64,000 bases of DNA from a virus (IMGVR_UViG_3300021399_000132:25746-89745); one strand, 5' to 3'; positions 43,332 to 61,039 are shown, counted from the stretch's first letter. A program made the numbers and translations. Notes: generated from the sequence alone by a model not told the origin.

Positions 43332-44591
43332 CTTACCTACCCTCGGTTTCCCGATATTTAATAAGGGGAGTAGACTATTCATTCAGGATTAGATTTTGTT
43401 TGTTATTTCGTCTAATCGGAAACTTTTCATTTGTGACCAATGACCATTGTTTGCCCTGGTTTATTCTATCAATTGTCGTCCTCGAGACAGCGAACCGCTT
43501 TGCGATTTCTTCTATACTGACATTTGTATTTTTTAACATATCCGCCACCGACAATATATCTTTATCGTCTAATTTGCGGCAGAGTCTTCTTGGGGCGTCG
43601 CTGTTCCGGTGGCTCTTTTTTCTTATCGGATACGTTTCATCGAGCACTTTACACCACGCACTTTTCCCTCTGTTAATCTGACCGACAGTATACCCCGGGA
43701 TGCCCAGCTTCTCCCCGATCTGATCTGCAGACATGTCGCTATCCTTCAGCATCTTAACGATCATTTTGACGATGTCCTCGTCGAGCACAGCTCTCTGAGC
43801 CGACGGATTTCGTAGCGGATAATTACTGTTACTGTCGCGTCTTCTCTTACCGGCGTTGATATCGCAAACGGCATAAAAATCAACGCCAACAAGCTCGGCT
43901 ATTTTGCTAAAAGAGTAATCGCTCTTCAGTAAATATTCTTTAACCAGGTCAACCTGTTCTTCAGTATATTTTGCTGTGATCCTTTCTGACCGCAACGGAT
44001 AGCGATAGCCGTCAAGCCTATATCCGCCATTACCAAGATTCGCTTCCGAGACCTGATAAATAGAGCAATCACACTTTTTACCTATCTCTTTAAACGTCAA
44101 GTCCGTGTTCAAGATTAGGTCGGCAATCTTGGAGGCTAGCATTGGATTTACTGCCCTTCGAGTACGCCCCTGACCACCAAGCGTCAAATTGTATCCATTT
44201 ACGTAACTCTTGTATTTGTCTATATAGTATATTTCTCTTTCATCAAGCAGCTCTTGTGTTTGAATGTTGTCTTCCAAAATCTTCAACTCAAAGTTATTCT
44301 CACCATACTTTTTTAACGCCCTATCAAAATATGAATCTTGGTGTAAATGATCGTAGTGACGTTTTTTTATTGGGCAAATTGTCTGACCAACATAGCATTT
44401 ACCATTCACCAAGTTTCGATATAAATATATACATCCGTTCATCCTAGAACCTCTATTTTTTTAATTTCTAATCCTGCCCCAATTGTAGTCGTTGAACCTT
44501 CTTCATTTTTTTTGATGAAGCTTGGCTGCAGATTGCCCGCGTGGGGTGTCCCTGCAATTTATGGGGTTTATAGTGAGCCAATTTGTTAAAA
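43332..44591 (-). mobile_element. group I intron nrdD-I2, 1260 nt, with GIY-YIG ORF
   Basis: GUGGGU pairs with GCUCAC; P10 AAUUG/CAAUU; P7 GACUA/UAGUC; terminal G; restores TLAVG-QLGLAE. Confidence 0.93.
43375..44442 (-). CDS. intron-encoded GIY-YIG endonuclease with four HTH repeats
   Basis: CIYLYRNLVNGKCYVGQT; stop codon lies in the P7 3' strand. Confidence 0.9.
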   Translation of the reverse strand: MNGCIYLYRNLVNGKCYVGQTICPIKKRHYDHLHQDSYFDRALKKYGENNFELKILEDNIQTQELLDEREIYYIDKYKSYVNGYNLTLGGQGRTRRAVNPMLASKIADLILNTDLTFKEIGKKCDCSIYQVSEANLGNGGYRLDGYRYPLRSERITAKYTEEQVDLVKEYLLKSDYSFSKIAELVGVDFYAVCDINAGKRRRDSNSNYPLRNPSAQRAVLDEDIVKMIVKMLKDSDMSADQIGEKLGIPGYTVGQINRGKSAWCKVLDETYPIRKKSHRNSDAPRRLCRKLDDKDILSVADMLKNTNVSIEEIAKRFAVSRTTIDRINQGKQWSLVTNEKFPIRRNNKQNLILNE

Positions 44592-45240
44592 ACCCACTGC
44601 GAGCGTGCCGTGTTTGAGCGCGCTACGAATACCTTCTTCTGGGTGATAACCCATCATTGTACCGTTTTCATACATGAACTTTGCGGAATCGGGTGACTGC
44701 CCGGCAATCCAGTTGAAACGCTCAATGAGCATGTCTCTGGCCTCGAACAGTTTCTTGTCCAGAATCGCCATAAACTCTTCGACGATATCTGTGCCATTCT
44801 CCTCTGCCTTTTCCTTCGCATCCATGGCAAGGAAGGGGAGGAGGATTGTGACAGGGGCGATATTACCTCTGCCATCCTTTGTCTGAGGGTTAACCCCAGG
44901 CTCGTGGTTAATGTCATACCCGTTTGCTGTACGGCAGCCCATGGTGCTGAAGTAAGTCGATGGATCGTTTGGATCATATCCAGCGTTGCCAGACCAATCT
45001 ACGTTTGCATAGTTCGGATAGAGACGCTGCGCAGTAGACTTAAGAGCAAGCTGGAACAGATCGTAGTTCGGATCGCCAGGCTTACGGTTGACACCCTTCA
45101 TGCACTGGAAGATGCCGCATGGGAAGATTGATGTTTTATGAAGTCTTCCAAGACCTTCAATGGAGACTTTAAGGATCTCCTCGGTTACCATGCGTCCCTC
45201 GGCAAGGGTGCAGGTGCCGTAGTTAATAGATGTAAAGGGT
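44592..45240 (-). CDS. nrdD: class III ribonucleotide reductase, exon 2
   Basis: PFTSINYG...MGCRT (catalytic Cys loop)...KHGTLAVG. Confidence 0.93.
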
Positions 45241-45521
45241 CATACATCATGTTATCGTGCGAGCTTTTTATCTCGCACATCTTGTAATTTCTTACAAGTT
45301 CAGCGTACGTTTTCACCTTCGTCATTACACGTTAAGGGCGGACACTCTTGGGCGGATTATATTTATTCACCGCCTACGCGTTACGATACTAAACAGCCTT
45401 TCGCGATCTGTTTAGTTATCTCGGCGTTACCATACTTTATGGGTAACAATAAAGTTTAGGGTTCGCCGATTTTGCCCGGATTTCGCTAACGATTTCGCGT
45501 TAGCCAGCCACCCTGTAATTT
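45241..45521 (-). mobile_element. group I intron nrdD-I1, ORF-less, 281 nt
   Basis: UCAGCU pairs with GGCUGG; P10 AGGGU/ACCCU; P7 GCGUA/UACGC; terminal G; restores SGNQL-PFTSINYG. Confidence 0.93.
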
Positions 45522-46459
45522 AGCTGATTTCCACTTCTACTCTGTAAGGTATTCAGGTTGTGATACATTCCCTCAACACCCTGATGAATCTCTTTGCGGG
45601 TCTGATCAATCGCATACTGATAAGCCCTTGGATATTTAAAATAAACCTCGTCTTCAATGGTAACCTTCGTCGGGTCTTCAAGTTCAAAATGCGCATCGTT
45701 CTGTGCGAGATACCTTACACCATCCTTGTAATGTTTATAGAAACTTTTCCGGACATACGGAACCATCGTCCAATCAATGTGGCTGGCAGACACACCGCCA
45801 AACTGCTGGAGAGACTGCAACTGGAAAATAACAGCAACCAGTTGGAATGCAGTATTAACCGAATTGGCGGGACGAACATCTGTCTGTCGCGTGTTAAATC
45901 CTTCGGCAAGCAATTTGTCGAACGGAATAGTCAGACAGTTATGGTTCCCGACTGCGTACGAATCCAAATCATGAATATAAATGTAATTGTCGAGATGGTT
46001 GTTACGAGCCATCTCTGACATACAGTTGTCGAGTGCGAATTTCTTTGTAAGGGCGCGATTTGCTTCGCCCATTCGACCACCAAATGATCGTTCATCAACA
46101 TTAGCGTTCTGGTTCTGTACATCACTCGCATCAAGCTTTCTAGCAACCTCACGCATGAACGCAGTATTATATTCGCGGACTCTTGTTCGCTCATAGCGAT
46201 ACTTAATGTAAGCCTTAGCCACGTCCTTACGCTTGCAAGACATCAGTCCATGTTCAACCAAGTCCTGAATCTCTTCTACATCAAACTCATGATCTGCCTT
46301 CTTGACAGCATCTTCAATATAGTTTGCGATGTTCTCGGCTTTAGTCTGTGCATATTCTGTTACTTCGCCGTCAACATCCTTGAACGCAGCCAAAACTGCA
46401 TTGACAATTTTGGTCTTGTCGAATTCGCGCTTCGCGCCATCCCGTTTTAAAATTCGCAT
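45522..46459 (-). CDS. nrdD: class III ribonucleotide reductase, exon 1 (ATP cone)
   Basis: ILKRDG...FDKTKI ATP cone; IYIHDLD; spliced protein 745 aa. Confidence 0.95.
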
Positions 46460-49164: not shown

Positions 49165-50158
49165 CCGTATTGTTCAGTATGTTATTATGCAAAACGCCAG
49201 ACATAACCGCCAGCGCTATTTCGTTTACCATGACAGCATTGAGAAATATGGGAATGTGATATACCGCACTCTAATTCGGCATCACGCGCCGCTCTAAATG
49301 AACGAATGAATTCGCCATCTTTTGTAAACATATTTATCTGCTTGCTGTTGCCATCGCCAATTTTACGCTTATGCTCGTCAGAAAACTTGCGACCGCGCAA
49401 ACCCTCCGAACGTCTCCTAAGAGTCTCTTCCGAAAGATTCTCACGGCGACGTGCATTAGATAACTTGGCTCTTGTCTCTGCGGAAGGGTGGTAATCTGGT
49501 GTCCCATCTCCGCCTGACGTCATGTTATAACCGTATGCTGAATCTTGCGTGTGCCAAAGACTGATTAACATACGCTCAGCCATCTTTGCTTCTTTTTCGC
49601 CGACGTCTGTGAGTATAACTTTGTGTTCGAATCCGTCCCATCCGTACTTCTCAATCGCAGAATAAAAATGCGGGTTCTCTTTGTACCCGCGTCCACCACT
49701 CCAACGATGCTCGATTTTTGGTTTAGACGTAATGCCAACATAACGTTTGCCATTTGTTTTGTTTACATGAACGTAAACTTTCCACTTCTTTTCCAAAGTT
49801 ACTCTCCTTCTTTGCATAATAAAAACAGGGTCGCTAACCCTGACTGGTATCTAAATACTCCTCTATATTTCTATAGAGCGCAGATCATATCTTCACCTTG
49901 CCACATTGTGGTTTAGGGCTCCCCACTTCGAAGCGCTTGCTTCTACGCCAAATTTAGGGCTGATCGTTGAACGTTCTCCTATTCGGAGCTTCGCTGCTGA
50001 TTGTCCAATTCTTATTCTTTTCCCGCATTCGCGCCTAGCCGTTTCATGCTTACGCTGTAGCGAATAAGACTCTAAGGAGTTTCCAGCAATTAAGGGAGTA
50101 GTTTTTACGCAACGTTTCCATTGCGCCAAGCTGTGTCGTGTGCGGTCACACACGATCA
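49165..50158 (-). mobile_element. group I intron, 994 nt, with GIY-YIG ORF 3' of P7
   Basis: CAAAGU pairs with GCUUGG (one mismatch); AAUUGCUGGAAAC core; P7 GAUCA/UGAUC; terminal G; restores EDGTK-Y-LTGE. Confidence 0.88.
49185..49796 (-). CDS. intron-encoded GIY-YIG endonuclease with NUMOD3/NUMOD1-like tail
   Basis: KVYVHVNKTNGKRYVGIT; HSAETRAKLS-type repeats; TTG start after AAGGAG. Confidence 0.88.
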   Translation of the reverse strand: MEKKWKVYVHVNKTNGKRYVGITSKPKIEHRWSGGRGYKENPHFYSAIEKYGWDGFEHKVILTDVGEKEAKMAERMLISLWHTQDSAYGYNMTSGGDGTPDYHPSAETRAKLSNARRRENLSEETLRRRSEGLRGRKFSDEHKRKIGDGNSKQINMFTKDGEFIRSFRAARDAELECGISHSHISQCCHGKRNSAGGYVWRFA

Positions 50159-50603
50159 ACTTTGTTCCGTCTTCTACAACGCACCACTGCTCAATAATGC
50201 GCTTATCTGCCGACACCCACTTCAGCAGAAAGTTACACTGCAAGAGCTTTGCTCTGGTGTATACCGTTGTATTAGCGTCACGTTCAGTAACAAGCCAGTA
50301 CTGATCCATCCAATGAACCAGCGACCCATTCTGAATATCATCACCGGGAAGTGAGAAGATGTACTTCTCGTTCAAGTTATCCGAGTTAATAATAGCCACA
50401 TTCTGTTCGAACATATATTTGGACTGCACCTGTCGGTCATCAATGTTGTAACCGTGGAAGCAGTCAAACATTTCTACCTGATGGTAGGAGAGTGTGTCCG
50501 GCACCCTCTTGTTAAGGTCATGAATCTCTCGGCGGAGAGCCGTCTGCCTTCGAGTTCTGCCATGGACGTCAGCGCGTGCTTCATAAGCCGACCACGCTGT
50601 CAT
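50159..50603 (-). CDS. putative head-closure/neck protein, exon 1
   Basis: The last 88 aa of the track ORF read into the intron; function from synteny. Confidence 0.8.
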
Positions 50604-55499: not shown

Positions 55500-57037
55500 T
55501 GCTCGGCCTCGATGTTCGCTTCACGCGAATCACTGACCTCGCCAACGCCCAACGTAGGACGTCCTGCTTCACCGTCAGTAGGGCTGTCGATGCTGGAAGC
55601 AGAAGTATTGTCGCTGCCCATCTGAGTCGAACTCATTAACGGTTTGAAACGCTTCTGTAAATTCAAGACGGTAGTCTCAAGATATGACATAGAGTCCATA
55701 GCCATCTGATCAAGACCCGAAGCAACACAATAATAGGAAACCATCGGGATACCGAACTGACATGCCTTTAAATAAGTGCCAAGCATCTCTTCTCTGTTGA
55801 AAGGGGAGATGTCAAGAATATTAAGTCTGAAGAAATGAGCATATGGACGCGTAGCCAAATATCTGTTAATTGCATCAGTGATTGAAAGAATGATGCCATA
55901 TGTAATAGCCTGGTCTGCCTTGATAGAAAGCAGCAACGCGTTTGAGCTTGCTTTGGCGTTGTTAAATAAAAGGGACGAAACACCTGAGGCTGTAAATAAA
56001 CTTTCCTCAGCTTCCGTGACAGTCTGAGTGTCGCCGGTGTTCGAACGCTCAAATGAAATCTTATTGATCGGCATCGGTGTGAGAACTGATCCTATTTCTT
56101 CAGGCAAAACAGCATCGAGGTTTTTCCAGAAAGCTTCAGCCTTATCCAGGTCAATGCCCCAGTTGCCTTCGGCGTCAAGGGGAATTGTCATAGACACAAG
56201 TGCGTAGTTCTCTAACGCCGCCCGCTCTAGTTTAAGGTCTTTGAACTCCTCGATATCGAAGACCTCTCTGAGCACTCCAGCGAATGGCGGAATCGCGTAT
56301 TCGATAATATCTGTATTACACTTGATCGCAAACGCCTTTGGAGAATCGAGTGTAATCCATCGATTACGGATGGATCTACCGCTCCGTTTGTATTCTTCGT
56401 ACTTAATACGGAACTCTTCGGGATATGTCTCAAGCAGGTCTTCACGATTTGTGAAATAACTAAAATTAAAAGTAACGTTAAACACGTTACCCTCAATTTC
56501 ACTGATCGCACAATAATCGGATGGAAGCTGCAAGATCGTTAACGTATCGCCAAGCTCCCACAAATATCCATAGAAAACGTCCTCACGAAGAACAACTGTC
56601 AGGATCTTTTTAAGCTGCGTTTTAAGATTCATTCCTTCAAGAATCTTTAACGTACGGCGATAGTTCAGATTAACAATGTTCGCACTGGCGTTCTTTGGAT
56701 CAATTCCATACGGCTCGATGAGATAGTCGATATCACTCAGCCCAACGAAGTACTGAATGATTCTCCTAAAGTGCGAACTAACCTGATAAATATAGCGTAC
56801 AGCTTCACGAAGCTGCCGTTCAAATCTGTATGGATTGGCAAGCCACATTGCAATATCATGCTTCTTGTATCGCATGAAGAAATGTGGGTACTGTTGTTTA
56901 TAATTGTTCAAGTCACGCAACAGAAGCGCCGTGACAGGACTTGAAAATTTAAATTCTGGAGAGGACGACTTGCCCGAACCGAGCGGGATGAAAGAACTGT
57001 CAGTCGTCGTCTTTACATCTTTTTCCATGGTTACCAC
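55496..57037 (-). CDS. portal protein
   Basis: 513 aa directly after terL. Confidence 0.75.
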   Translation of the reverse strand: MVTMEKDVKTTTDSSFIPLGSGKSSSPEFKFSSPVTALLLRDLNNYKQQYPHFFMRYKKHDIAMWLANPYRFERQLREAVRYIYQVSSHFRRIIQYFVGLSDIDYLIEPYGIDPKNASANIVNLNYRRTLKILEGMNLKTQLKKILTVVLREDVFYGYLWELGDTLTILQLPSDYCAISEIEGNVFNVTFNFSYFTNREDLLETYPEEFRIKYEEYKRSGRSIRNRWITLDSPKAFAIKCNTDIIEYAIPPFAGVLREVFDIEEFKDLKLERAALENYALVSMTIPLDAEGNWGIDLDKAEAFWKNLDAVLPEEIGSVLTPMPINKISFERSNTGDTQTVTEAEESLFTASGVSSLLFNNAKASSNALLLSIKADQAITYGIILSITDAINRYLATRPYAHFFRLNILDISPFNREEMLGTYLKACQFGIPMVSYYCVASGLDQMAMDSMSYLETTVLNLQKRFKPLMSSTQMGSDNTSASSIDSPTDGEAGRPTLGVGEVSDSREANIEAEQ

Positions 57038-58614
57038 GACCCTCCTCTGTCTATATGTCTTCTTGGGGCTCGAATTTGATACATCGAAGCCTCGGCAACA
57101 CCCTTGTTTTGACGACGAGATTCTTTAATGTCTATCTGCGTCGCAACGTAGTAACAGTAGGCAAGGGAAGAATATCTATCCTTGCGCATGCCAGTCTGTT
57201 CAAAAACACGGATGCGTGAACCAGTCTGCTCATGCCTAAGCTTTGTTAGCTCGTCGATGAGTAGGGTGGTATGAATATAAGGTAACTGCAGAGACATCTT
57301 CTCTGCGGGATTCAAACTGTTGTAGCCTTTTAACGATTTGAGATTTTCTTCCCCATCAGATTCGTTCATAAGCAAACGAATACGTCCGTTGTTCAAGGCA
57401 TCTCTTAAAAGGATCGCGCTGTCTGAGTTAAATTGCGCAGACCCCTTGATAGACCATATGCACTTTCTGGCACCCGGCACTGTGCATCTGGCCGCCATAT
57501 TATCGTCATTACAACAAGACAGCGCCGGATATATTTCACCAGTCTCTGGGTCGTCTAGATCCTTCGATAGAGCATCATAAACACCAAGACCAATTCCATT
57601 AGTGTCGAGGACTAGATAATCACATTGGAACTCGTCAAACAACCTTCTAATTACAAGAGCCTGGTCTTCTGTTCGGAGACCTTCATAGGCATTACCATAA
57701 ACAATATTGTTTGAATATCGCCCAGCCTTTGTTGGGAGCATTTGATCTATCCACACAGCCGTGGCATCGTTCTTGTGCTTCGTTGACGCCATGAGCGCGA
57801 TATCAGCGGACAGAATTCGTTTCTCACCATTTACTTTTGGTGGGATACGGATGTTTGCGTTATCTTTTAACTTTCGCGAAAGCTTGTCCGGCAACATCGG
57901 ATACCTGATTCGTCTGTTGCGCACAATCAAATCATAATTGAAGAAGGCGTTATCTGAGGCACCCCAGAACAACGCACCCATTTCTTGGCTAAACTTGATT
58001 TCACTGAAATCAGAATCGGCCATTTCGTCGGCGACAAATTCTGGGTCGAGCATGCCTTCTGCAATAGGTAATTGATAGGGGAAGCTGCATACAAACTGCT
58101 TTCTGCTTGGATTAACCATTGCATGCAATGTATCTATGCATTTCTGATAAGACCAGTTCTCTTTCCAGTAAGCGCTACTGAGGTACATTGTTAAGTTCTT
58201 TTCTTTACGCCACTCCTTCTTACGCTCCTCTAGCGATAAGGCGTTATAATCCGGTTGCCTTGTTAGCGTCAAGAACTTTCGAAGGATGGTATCAATCGTA
58301 TCCTTTGGAACAAGCCTAAATTCATCAACGAGAACAACATTTGCGCGGTTGCCACGTGCTGATTCGCCAGCCGTGACAACTTTAATTACACTTGAATTCT
58401 TAAATGTAATAATCGCGTTCGTTGGATTAATCTTAGTCTCCTTCCAATCGATCTCGGCCTTGAGCTCTGGCGACCTCGGGACTAGTTCTTGTGTGATCTT
58501 TTCGAGCACGTTGATCGATTGCGACCGAACAGACGACGCAACACAAACACGTGTGCCCGGGTAGAGTATGCATCTTACTACACAATAGATGGCGCTTAAG
58601 AATGTCTTTCCAAG
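57031..58614 (-). CDS. terL: terminase large subunit, exon 2
   Basis: LGKTFLS; Walker B VLVDEFR; nuclease ADIA...KDRYSSL; spliced protein 585 aa. Confidence 0.92.
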   Translation of the reverse strand, partial: LGKTFLSAIYCVVRCILYPGTRVCVASSVRSQSINVLEKITQELVPRSPELKAEIDWKETKINPTNAIITFKNSSVIKVVTAGESARGNRANVVLVDEFRLVPKDTIDTILRKFLTLTRQPDYNALSLEERKKEWRKEKNLTMYLSSAYWKENWSYQKCIDTLHAMVNPSRKQFVCSFPYQLPIAEGMLDPEFVADEMADSDFSEIKFSQEMGALFWGASDNAFFNYDLIVRNRRIRYPMLPDKLSRKLKDNANIRIPPKVNGEKRILSADIALMASTKHKNDATAVWIDQMLPTKAGRYSNNIVYGNAYEGLRTEDQALVIRRLFDEFQCDYLVLDTNGIGLGVYDALSKDLDDPETGEIYPALSCCNDDNMAARCTVPGARKCIWSIKGSAQFNSDSAILLRDALNNGRIRLLMNESDGEENLKSLKGYNSLNPAEKMSLQLPYIHTTLLIDELTKLRHEQTGSRIRVFEQTGMRKDRYSSLAYCYYVATQIDIKESRRQNKGVAEASMYQIRAPRRHIDRGGSW

Positions 58615-59853
58615 CACTTGTTAACCTAAGAGCTTTTTATCTCTTAGCTCTTATACTTTCGTATAAGCTCAGCATATATCTTCACCCGCATTGGGCGGCG
58701 GACACTCGTGGCGATATTATTGCTCCCAAATCACGCTCAATCGCTATGCGTTACGATACCAACAGGTAATTGGTTATCTCGGTGTTGGCATATCTAAAGA
58801 CTTAGCGTTCACCGATATTGCCCGCTTTCTACTACGTATTGCTACGCAGCAAGGCCATAGAAATTTTCAAAGATCGAATACTTGCGATTTAGTTTAATCG
58901 CTTTTTTGTCTGCGTATAGATGTTTAAACAATGCGGCAACAGAATCCTTCCTGTAACACCTCAGTGTGTACTTTGGCATATACTGCCCGCGCTGTTCACG
59001 ATAAATTGAGGTATGTATTCCATAATCATCTAAAAGTTTAGATTGTATGTATTTAAGAACGCAATCGCTAGCACTTGCGATGCCGACGTCGAGGTACTTC
59101 CGTTGTTTTGTTACCCATCCGTCGCCATCAATATACCCGCGCAAAAAATCGAAGAATAGACTATCGTCTACAACCGGGAACCTGTCACTATGGCTCTTTC
59201 GCAGATCAATTCCATTAGCCATCAAATCAGTTACCATCTTCTTTGAATAAACGCGCAACACGCTCGAGTCAGTTTCTGATTCATTGCGGTTATTTGCGAT
59301 CAGTAGCTTGTTATGATACTGCTTAATTACATGTTGACCACCCAACGCATTGTTGAGCATGTGAAGAATATATTCATCACATCGTTGCAACTCCATCCCA
59401 AATTCATAACTCAGGCGGCTGTTTGGGTCACTGCTATCTCTCTTATGAACCGAAATCCAACCGTCTGCATAAATAAAACCGAGCCAATAAGCTCGGTCTG
59501 GTGTATTTATTTTCTCGAAATAATCTTCGTTGAATACACGTGTTTTTAAAACGCGATCCTTAATGTGGTTGCGAACCCAAGCCTCGACTTGTTTGCTTGT
59601 CAGCCCGAGATGCTCACCGATCTCCGGATAGGTCATAGTTTGGTAGTTGGCAATGATATATTTTGAAGCCTCATCGTCGAGATCCAGCCTCACACGCTTT
59701 CTCTTTGTAGGCCAACCACTTCGACGAACTAACATTTGCACAGAACTTTTATTTATTCCCAAATGTTCAGCAATCAAACTATATGGCTGCTCCATATAAT
59801 GATCTTTAATATATTCCTTTTGTTCCGTATTCATCTTTTATTTTTCCTGTTTA
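58615..59853 (-). mobile_element. group I intron in the terL Walker A motif, 1239 nt, LAGLIDADG ORF in the P1 loop
   Basis: CGUGGU pairs with GCCUUG; P10 UUUCUAUG/CUUGGAAA; P7 GCAUA/UAUGC; terminal G; restores CRG-LGKT. Confidence 0.9.
58842..59834 (-). CDS. intron-encoded two-motif LAGLIDADG endonuclease
   Basis: YWLGFIYADG and FLRGYIDGDG; two N-terminal HTH-like repeats. Confidence 0.88.
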   Translation of the reverse strand: MNTEQKEYIKDHYMEQPYSLIAEHLGINKSSVQMLVRRSGWPTKRKRVRLDLDDEASKYIIANYQTMTYPEIGEHLGLTSKQVEAWVRNHIKDRVLKTRVFNEDYFEKINTPDRAYWLGFIYADGWISVHKRDSSDPNSRLSYEFGMELQRCDEYILHMLNNALGGQHVIKQYHNKLLIANNRNESETDSSVLRVYSKKMVTDLMANGIDLRKSHSDRFPVVDDSLFFDFLRGYIDGDGWVTKQRKYLDVGIASASDCVLKYIQSKLLDDYGIHTSIYREQRGQYMPKYTLRCYRKDSVAALFKHLYADKKAIKLNRKYSIFENFYGLAA

Positions 59854-60027
59854 ACCACGACATGCTATAAATACCATCGTTGTGCTCCAGAACATCATCA
59901 CCAAGACAATGCGCTGGAATAAATGCAGTCGAACGTGTAAGTAGTCTTCGACAAACTTATCGACGTTCTCACGATAAAAAGCGCCCCATGCTGCGGCGCC
60001 GTTCAATACGTTCTCATATCTACTCAT
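59854..60027 (-). CDS. terL: terminase large subunit, exon 1
   Basis: Start reassigned to ATG 60027; LHLFQRIVL...FIACRG. Confidence 0.88.
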
Positions 60028-61039
60028 TCTCGGTAGCCCCCGCCGAAGACAGGATGTCTTCATCATCGTCGCCCTCGTACTCCGGCTTTTGCACAGAGTA
60101 CTTTGCGATAGCCTCATCGTATAAATCTGAGTACGCATTCTTGATGTCGAGCATCTTGCATAGATGCCCCATCCACGTAAATACATATTTACGAATATGA
60201 TTCACGTCCTTCAACTGTTCGTCCACCTCGGGCAGCGGTCGTTGATTCTCGTATTTATACAGCCAGACGCCGAGCGGTACCTCCGCCAAAGCCTGCGCCT
60301 CGTCAGTTTTCTGCTGTTGGGCAGGCTTTAAATTCGCCGAGCCCATCAGGCTATTCAATATCTGGATATCTTTTTCCGGTGATCGTCCATCTGCACGATC
60401 TCTGGCAATATCCAATTCAGTCAAGCAAATCTGCTTGACAAGCATCTCTGTAGCAATATCGAAAGTTCCGTCACCGCGCCACTCTTCATATCTCTTCTGG
60501 AGAGCTTCATATGATTCAGCGTCAAGTCCATCGCCCCAGAAATCGATCAATGCCTGATCAACTTCAATAGGGGGGTCTACGGGATCTGGCTCAGGTTCAG
60601 TAACAGGTTCCGGCTCTTCCAAACCAACCGGCTCCTGTTTCTCTTCGGCAATACCGAACTGCCACATTGTATTCTCTTTAATCAGTGTATCGTCGTAGCT
60701 CATTCCGTTGTAACGCTGTTGGCTGAGCTTCTGCAGGTACTGATCGATTAATGTTCTTGGAACAGATTTTGCGACAACAGACTGATATATTGCATCATCA
60801 TAGTATAGGTCTAATTTCCTACAGACCTGTCTAATCGCATCTTCTGGTTTGCGTGCTTGCTGGAAGTATTGAGTATACATTGCATCAACGCAATTTTTAC
60901 ATACGCTTAATGTACCAATACCCCTATACATGGCGGCATAACTTACAGCAAAGTTGCCTTTACGTTTTGGATATCGTGTGCCGCAACGCGTGCAGACAGC
61001 ACCTTCACCGTTGCTGACACTCGAGATATCAAGAGCCAT
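60020..61039 (-). CDS. putative terminase small subunit / zinc-finger protein
   Basis: CTRC...CKNC; directly upstream of terL. Confidence 0.55.
   Translation of the reverse strand: MALDISSVSNGEGAVCTRCGTRYPKRKGNFAVSYAAMYRGIGTLSVCKNCVDAMYTQYFQQARKPEDAIRQVCRKLDLYYDDAIYQSVVAKSVPRTLIDQYLQKLSQQRYNGMSYDDTLIKENTMWQFGIAEEKQEPVGLEEPEPVTEPEPDPVDPPIEVDQALIDFWGDGLDAESYEALQKRYEEWRGDGTFDIATEMLVKQICLTELDIARDRADGRSPEKDIQILNSLMGSANLKPAQQQKTDEAQALAEVPLGVWLYKYENQRPLPEVDEQLKDVNHIRKYVFTWMGHLCKMLDIKNAYSDLYDEAIAKYSVQKPEYEGDDDEDILSSAGATENE

Follow-up and report, generated by a model that had tools for sequence, protein, structure and literature searches.

Group I introns in the terminase gene terL have already been described (PMC2504315, PMC11878797), as have stop codons at the intron start, open reading frames (ORFs) housed in P1, overlap between ORFs and the ribozyme core, and translational interference with splicing. 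Group I introns of bacteria and phages commonly have a stop codon near their start (PMC2504315, PMC3073962). Splicing of the td intron is impaired when ribosomes occupy the I-TevI ORF, and the I-Ssp6803I ORF overlaps P1/P2 by 61 nt (PMC3073962); there is further precedent for antagonism between translation and splicing (PMC3984707). In what has been termed 'core creep', ORFs land in loops of the ribozyme and then extend into ribozyme sequence (PMC3073962). As to the encoded enzymes, reviews stress GIY-YIG and HNH endonucleases for phage introns (PMC3984707). Here we describe a terL locus in a 64,000-nt stretch of viral DNA (IMGVR_UViG_3300021399_000132:25746-89745, hereafter the window) taken from an 89.7-kb IMG/VR virus contig. 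Our analysis makes it highly probable that the Walker A loop of terL is interrupted by a group I intron with a distal guide sequence and a LAGLIDADG ORF in L1, the loop of P1. Boundaries, core structure, protein fold and intron-less alleles were computed here, and the position of the guide was assigned by homology. The locus leaves current understanding of how such elements work unchanged; its useful extras are the Walker A insertion site, an enzyme that joins helix-turn-helix (HTH) and LAGLIDADG domains, and a comparative series for ORF placement.

The interrupted terL gene and its ribozyme core

All features at the terL locus lie on the minus strand and are given in window positions; L-numbers denote the related viral contig loci that we collected, and WIN the window's own copy. 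The gene order integrase-HU-YonG-terL identifies the host replicon as an SPbeta-like phage of Bacillota. The two pieces of terL align to consecutive parts of one terminase profile (PHROG 15503), with exon 1 covering profile positions 35-95 and exon 2 covering 96-241, so that the alignment is continuous at 95/96. Exon 2 matches terminase PHROG families and is 42% identical over 97% of its length to the SPbeta YonF terminase, while its Pfam TerL_ATPase score, taken alone, falls just below the cut-off (21.9 versus 23.7). Scanning viral contigs with exon 2, we found uninterrupted terL in four related contigs (L008-L011; 62-87% amino acid identity), in each of which the exon-1 homologue directly abuts the exon-2 homologue; around the junction, L009 and the window are identical at 59/60 nt. 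Because the exons abut exactly in these alleles, the 1,239 nt at 58615-59853 are an insertion that needs in-frame removal. The insertion begins with UAAACAGG, ends with CAAGUG and falls between codons Gly58 and Leu59, inside the Walker A loop (ACRG/LGKT). Its removal is in frame, and the spliced exons read ACRGLGKT, a canonical Walker A motif.

The ribozyme core occupies 58615-58857, with P2-P9.1 filling the last ~240 nt of the intron. Rfam model RF00028 matches 58650-58900 at 40.9 bits (E 2.7e-9; search of a 321-nt stretch/per-genome search), whereas scans of the whole window and of 1.7 kb missed the terL intron because of the 1-kb ORF. BLAST identified this core in an intron of the helicase gene of Bacillus phage PJN02 and in one of the DNA polymerase gene of Alicyclobacillus phage MMB025, and a conserved 22-nt pattern spanning J8/7, P7 and P9 retrieved 36 more viral loci. 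Covariation was counted on a 14-sequence family alignment over P3, P4, P5, P6, P7 (the pseudoknot), P7.1, P8, P9 and P9.1, 49 pairs in all. Among these 14 members, 96.5% of cells are paired, compared with 28-42% in controls that shift the 3′ partners by 1-3 columns, and 29/49 pairs have changed on both sides; none of 500 shuffles reached the observed values. One covarying helix, P7.1, lies between P7 and the 3′ strand of P3, which suggests subgroup IA, only one of the P7.1/P7.2 pair being resolved. By family membership, 58615-59853 is thus predicted to be a self-splicing group I intron. The original prediction of a group I intron in the Walker A loop is borne out by the intron-less alleles and by this covarying core.

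Gene callers annotate three separate ORFs here and the Rfam score lies under its cut-off, as would be expected if there were no intron and terL were a split gene or pseudogene with a free-standing endonuclease gene between its pieces. Such an arrangement is extremely improbable, as the covarying P3-P9.1 core exactly fills the gap between the ORF and exon 2, a U precedes the 5′ boundary and a G terminates the insertion, in-frame removal restores a canonical Walker A motif, and divergent phages share the arrangement. For annotation, TerL of this phage group would be one 585-aa protein rather than ORFs of 58 aa and 527 aa, and the 'hypothetical' middle gene would be a homing endonuclease.

Position of the internal guide sequence

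Two relatives with a compact P1 guided our placement of the guide. In L043, where the intron occupies another terL site and the junction is fixed independently by protein alignment to the window terL (88/89), P1 is the compact hairpin GGU/UA-AGUU-UAGCC and P2 follows immediately. The MMB025 DnaE intron is built likewise, its P1 being compact and its guide immediately preceding P2, and its junction matches the DnaE motif. Since the guide abuts P2 in these compact relatives, that of the window intron should be distal: very probably it lies directly 5′ of P2 inside the last codons of the ORF, which would leave the ORF in loop L1, just as originally predicted. A check for a guide near the 5′ end of the intron found no conserved candidate there.

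In this placement the exon-end U59854 wobble-pairs with guide G58855, which is invariant across the family, adjoins P2 and lies 998 nt from the 5′ splice site. P1 then comprises five pairs (A+2-U, U+1-G, U-1-G, G-C and G-C). The same five-pair core is present in 8/9 terL-site introns, the +2 pair being lost in L067, and extra exon-side pairs form where exon position -4 is A or G; L018, whose 5′ splice site is not assignable, was left out of this comparison. For P2, 98.2% of cells are paired among 8 terL-site introns and 2 pairs have changed on both sides, the changes lying opposite the last codons of the ORF. These codons, UUC UAU GGC CUU GCU GCG UAG (FYGLAA and stop), contain the candidate P10 strand, the guide and the 5′ strand of P2, and the UAG stop (58842-58844) spans the P2 5′ strand and loop, a register shared by WIN and L061-L067. 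An ORF end that appears to read through guide and P2 fits 'core creep', to which the series would lend direct comparative support.

Several observations weigh against this reading. P1 is short, with five contiguous pairs of which two are G-U, followed by a U-U mismatch, and the ORF contains 12 chance sites whose pairing equals or exceeds it. Because equal pairing occurs by chance, placement of the guide rests on homology with relatives and not on pairing strength. P1 also shows little true covariation, since the exon end is fixed as GGU, a glycine codon, and the guide also encodes protein. P10 is good only in the window's own clade and is weak or absent in L063-L067. At the level of the core, the RF00028 score of 40.9 bits is below the curated 50-bit gathering threshold, and P1 and P2 are misplaced in the Rfam alignment, whose P1/P2 we did not use. 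With regard to expression, the ORF has only a weak Shine-Dalgarno sequence (AGGA, 10 nt upstream), and a scan for promoters and terminators found nothing above chance, the frequency of promoter-like sites included. P1 was not singled out when the splice site and the guide region were folded and cofolded thermodynamically, an uninformative outcome given helices this short.

The same distal region offers another register, in which GCUGCG (58850-58845, in the P2 5′ strand) would pair with exon CGUGGU and make P1 and P2 mutually exclusive. We consider it highly improbable. Its six contiguous pairs are stronger than those of GCCUUG and recur in WIN, L061, L062 and L065, but the pairing is lost in L064 and L067, whose exons end in AGAGGU and which gain pairs in the GCC register; it also conflicts with P2, itself supported by compensatory changes, and in the compact relatives the guide G is the one immediately preceding P2. 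A local guide has been considered as well: GCCAU at 59787-59783, 66 nt into the intron and inside the ORF, makes five contiguous pairs with exon GUGGU, and L061 and L062 retain pairing at this place with GCCGU; P1 would then be a local hairpin with the ORF between P1 and P2. However, this is one of the 12 equally good chance sites in the ORF, it is without a P10 partner, and no site is present at the homologous place in L063-L067 or L030. It would further put a 1-kb J1/2 between P1 and the core, while the guide abuts P2 in every compact relative, and a local guide is therefore highly improbable. Table 1 accordingly lists features with the guide directly 5′ of P2.

Table 1. Positions of features at the terL locus, in window coordinates unless another locus is named
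Feature	Position	Strand	Remarks
terL exon 1	59854..60027	-	58 aa; ends FIACRG, first half of Walker A; from ORF list and intron-less alleles
terL exon 2	57031..58614	-	527 aa; begins LGKTF; from PHROG terminase families
Group I intron (predicted)	58615..59853	-	1,239 nt; U precedes 5′ splice site, terminal G at 58615; boundaries from intron-less alleles
UAA stop in frame with exon 1	59851..59853	-	Intron +1..+3; read from sequence
Homing endonuclease ORF (predicted)	58842..59834	-	330 aa; in loop L1 of P1; from Pfam, PHROG 4645, dN/dS
Two N-terminal HTH domains (predicted)	59565..59828	-	Residues 3-39 and 54-90; AlphaFold2 three-helix units, weak Pfam HTH and Sigma70_r4 matches
LAGLIDADG half 1	59217..59501	-	Residues 112-206; catalytic Asp124 at 59463-59465
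LAGLIDADG half 2	58854..59165	-	Residues 224-327; catalytic Asp238 at 59121-59123
P1 5′ strand (probable)	59852..59856	-	Exon GGU + intron UA; pairs with UGGCC at 58857-58853
Internal guide sequence/P1 3′ strand (probable)	58850..58857	-	UG-G-CCUUG; invariant G at 58855; GCCUUG is 58855-58850
P2 hairpin	58832..58849	-	CUGCGUA-GCAA-UACGUAG; preferred over shorter hairpin
Candidate P10 strand	58856..58863	-	UUUCUAUG; pairs with exon 2 CUUGGAAA at 7/8 positions; tentative
P3	58819-58825 with 58698-58704	-	100% paired; 6/7 pairs changed on both sides
P4	58810-58815/58779-58784	-	Enclosed by P3, as is P5
P6	58770-58774/58758-58762	-	Enclosed by P3
P7	58745-58749 (5′ strand); 58672-58676 (3′ strand)	-	Pseudoknot with P3; 100% paired; A-U to G-C change in L063 and L065
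P7.1	58740-58744/58711-58715	-	4/5 pairs changed on both sides
P8	58693-58697/58683-58687	-	Followed by J8/7 and P7 3′ strand (region 58672..58697)
P9	58650-58667	-	GAAA loop; 5/7 pairs changed on both sides
P9.1	58626-58647	-	6/7 pairs changed on both sides; then conserved AACA tail and terminal G (58615)
Shine-Dalgarno-sequestering leaders	L063:1444-1500, L064:608-669, L065:1439-1500, L066:1444-1500, L067:1442-1500		Covarying hairpin + CCUCC/GGAGG helix

The predicted endonuclease, its relatives and probable homing

The AUG of the intron ORF is at intron +20 (59834), 19 nt after the 5′ splice site, and its frame differs from that of exon 1, as had been noted beforehand. Both halves of the product exceed Pfam cut-offs, with LAGLIDADG_3 (PF14528) matching residues 230-304 at 54.8 bits (cut-off 22.5; 1.1e-14) and LAGLIDADG_1 (PF00961) matching residues 117-184 at 32.5 bits (cut-off 23.1; 1.6e-7), and the ORF matches PHROG 4645 at 4.4e-47. 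An AlphaFold2 model built on 34 homologues (predicted local distance difference test score 91.4) has two alpha-beta-beta-alpha-beta-beta-alpha halves in a pseudo-dimeric arrangement, for which the top Foldseek matches were I-OnuI, bI3 maturase, I-AniI and I-SmaMI (E about 1e-9, probability 1.0). The catalytic residues D124 (YADG) and D238 (DGDG) are invariant in the 34 homologues, and dN/dS is ~0.06 against the 81%-identical L061 copy. We thus predict a monomeric two-motif LAGLIDADG nuclease with two HTH domains, a possible application being as a new meganuclease scaffold with accessory HTH domains. The Pfam cut-offs and the modeled fold agree with the two-motif LAGLIDADG assignment of the original prediction, which overstated how unusual such an enzyme is in a phage intron: this HTH+LAGLIDADG family comprises 427 proteins at E<=1e-5, forms its own PHROG (4645), and has many members in phage introns. 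Within the ORF, a 10-bp hairpin followed by a U-rich run (window 59476-59499, minus strand) resembles a terminator and coincides exactly with the codons for LAGLIDADG motif 1 (DRAYWLGFIY). A hairpin like it, with A-U in place of a G-C pair, occurs in L066, and several further copies, though not all, have one too; the element may act in pausing or termination or simply reflect the codons of the motif.

The structural matches to bI3 maturase and the bifunctional I-AniI bear on whether the RNA acts alone. If the intron were not efficiently self-splicing, closure of P1 over ~1 kb would need a helper, either the LAGLIDADG protein as maturase or host factors. The weak P1 would be in keeping with this, as would the finding that some Bastillevirinae introns are spliced in vivo but not in vitro (PMC11878797). 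Nevertheless, fold similarity does not indicate RNA binding, and the invariance of both catalytic Asp residues fits a nuclease. The same ribozyme family also occurs with GIY-YIG ORFs in L1 or with no L1 ORF, which argues that the RNA is independent of the LAGLIDADG family. A need for a helper is thus unlikely, and a self-splicing intron that encodes a nuclease is the reading we prefer.

The same intron, with homing endonuclease genes 46-81% identical, occupies the same terL site in L061-L067, all with YonG-exon 1-endonuclease-exon 2 synteny, and is also found in the distant terL of L030. Alleles at the terL site are mixed among related genomes, intron-less in L008-L011 and intron-containing in L061-L067 and L030. 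Across window 57900-61000, exon 1, the core and the first 100 nt of exon 2 match L061 at 88-97% of nucleotides, a figure that drops to 70-84% inside the ORF and to 55-82% further out. Such a peak is compatible with co-conversion tracts around a homing site, to which it bears a resemblance; P-loop conservation could also contribute. From family membership, and from the patchy occurrence of the intron among relatives, we infer self-splicing, cleavage and homing. The RNA would fold and self-splice with a guanosine cofactor to give an intact terminase ATPase, and the ORF product would cut the intron-less terL of co-infecting relatives at conserved P-loop coding sequence, with the intron-less junction TGTCGTGGT/CTTGGAAAG as the candidate target; repair after the cut would then copy the intron in.

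Beyond the terL site, members of the ribozyme family in L001, L002, L012, L023, L043 and the window occupy various genes, among them DnaE, a RecD-like helicase and, at two sites, terL. In almost every case the 5′ exon finishes with GGU, a glycine codon, which pairs with a conserved GCC guide; the exception seen is L014 (exon GGCU, guide GGUC). Several family insertions are in P-loops (ACRG/LGKT, GGGGMG/KS). This pattern suggests that a match of only 3 exon nt may have been enough for the ribozyme family to reach new sites. GIY-YIG ORFs are present at the same L1 position as the LAGLIDADG ORFs of sister introns (L038:3500-4312(-), L041:240-1061(-) and L002:2410-2994), and that of L038 reads guide and P2 in the frame of the PJN02 LAGLIDADG ORF, giving a shared ...AVLDRNV tail. 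MMB025, for its part, has a homologous HTH+LAGLIDADG ORF in the P5 loop. The locus and its roughly 45 relatives form a natural series in which one ribozyme family has ORFs of two unrelated enzyme families, LAGLIDADG or GIY-YIG, in L1, and in which the LAGLIDADG family is found in L1 or in the P5 loop, or P1 is compact with no L1 ORF. This series offers a testable system for the effect of a 1-kb P1 loop, and of ribosomes on it, on splice-site recognition.

Elsewhere in the window, the gene directly upstream of terL (60020-61039, minus strand) overlaps the terL start and has an N-terminal Cys4 motif. Its relatives carry Pfam YonG_N and YonG_C domains, and the product may be a small terminase or another packaging partner. 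Three more Rfam group I intron matches are found in the same phage, at window 49861-50205(-) with 59.9 bits, 44321-44640(-) with 45.8 bits and 45281-45531(-) with 25.2 bits, making this phage intron-rich.

Expression of the endonuclease and comparison with known systems

Overlap between the ORF and the ribozyme has possible consequences for splicing. A ribosome finishing the ORF would have to unwind the guide and P2, and one halted at the UAA at intron +1..+3 would cover the 5′ splice site. Competition between translation and splicing is reasonable on both counts, and a single transcript would probably be translated for endonuclease or spliced, not both at once. An inverse coupling of endonuclease translation and terL splicing is therefore plausible, as judged from the overlap.

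Endonuclease synthesis could, in addition, be wired to translation of unspliced terL by termination-reinitiation, each precursor being committed to endonuclease or to splicing. In this scheme ribosomes would stop at the UAA at the intron start, restart at the AUG 16 nt further on and then meet the guide and P2. Reinitiation after the exon-1 stop is possible because the 19-nt leader of the window intron is unstructured and its Shine-Dalgarno sequence weak, with none in L061, though as a whole the scheme remains doubtful. If true, it would amount to a built-in kinetic partition of one transcript between selfish and host-serving fates. In L061 (2501-2524), no stop interrupts the endonuclease frame between its start and an upstream GUG lying across the 5′ splice site, and the gene caller accordingly gave a product of 338 aa; in the window, UAA closes this frame.

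The deeper-branching L063-L067 may control expression differently, by means of a leader hairpin that hides the Shine-Dalgarno sequence. Their leader (57-62 nt) has a small covarying hairpin followed by a CCUCC...GGAGG helix hiding the Shine-Dalgarno sequence, and an upstream GGGGGU or GGAGGU could compete for CCUCC, so that the leader looks like a translational switch. It is absent from the window intron and from L061/L062. We considered whether a local complement of the exon end in these leaders (GCCAC, GCCGC) is a covarying guide; it is better read as the part of the leader helix that pairs with GGGGGU or GGAGGU, and as a guide it fails in L064 and L066.

Among known systems, the Synechocystis PCC 6803 tRNA-fMet intron with I-Ssp6803I (PMC3073962, Table 1) resembles the window intron in having its ORF in P1 with an end that overlaps P1/P2, by 61 nt there and by about 22-27 nt here. 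It differs in encoding a PD-(D/E)xK enzyme within a bacterial tRNA gene, whereas the window has an HTH+LAGLIDADG enzyme within a phage protein gene; because that host gene is translated, ribosomes would act on both exon and ORF. Going by the account of Gibb and Edgell (2010) as cited in PMC3073962, the T4 td intron with I-TevI is a mobile phage intron of subgroup IA, the subgroup that P7.1 suggests for the window intron; there too the 3′ end of the ORF supplies ribozyme nucleotides and a stop follows the 5′ splice site, and translation of the I-TevI ORF interferes with splicing. According to the same account, I-TevI is a GIY-YIG enzyme encoded in P6, its ORF overlaps P6a/P7 and its ribosome-binding site is hidden in a hairpin. 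The window ORF, in contrast, would lie in L1 and overlap guide and P2, and it follows an unstructured leader. It is the relatives L063-L067 that, like td, have a hairpin sequestering the Shine-Dalgarno sequence.

The B. cereus term-IVS1/2 (PMC2504315) and Bastillevirinae TerL introns (PMC11878797) are, like the window intron, group I introns in terL of Bacillota phages; they are of IA type, as P7.1 suggests for the window intron, and several of them were shown to splice. They encode GIY-YIG, HNH or VSR-like endonucleases, or none; a literature search of incomplete coverage found no paper linking a terL group I intron to Walker A. Sister introns of the same ribozyme family are those of the PJN02 RecD-like helicase and the MMB025 DNA polymerase, whose cores are 66-72% identical to the window's and which share exon ends in GGU and a GCC guide beside P2. 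The PJN02 intron likewise carries a LAGLIDADG ORF in L1 and interrupts a Walker A loop (GGGGMG/KS). Both differ from the window intron in host gene, and MMB025 further in carrying its ORF in the P5 loop with a compact P1 hairpin. At the protein level, I-OnuI, I-AniI, I-SmaMI and bI3 maturase (PDB) share with the modeled window protein the double alpha-beta-beta-alpha-beta-beta-alpha fold and one catalytic Asp per motif. Identity to these enzymes is 12-20%, and the window protein has about 95 extra N-terminal residues that would form its two HTH domains; whereas these LAGLIDADG enzymes are organellar, that of the window comes from a phage.

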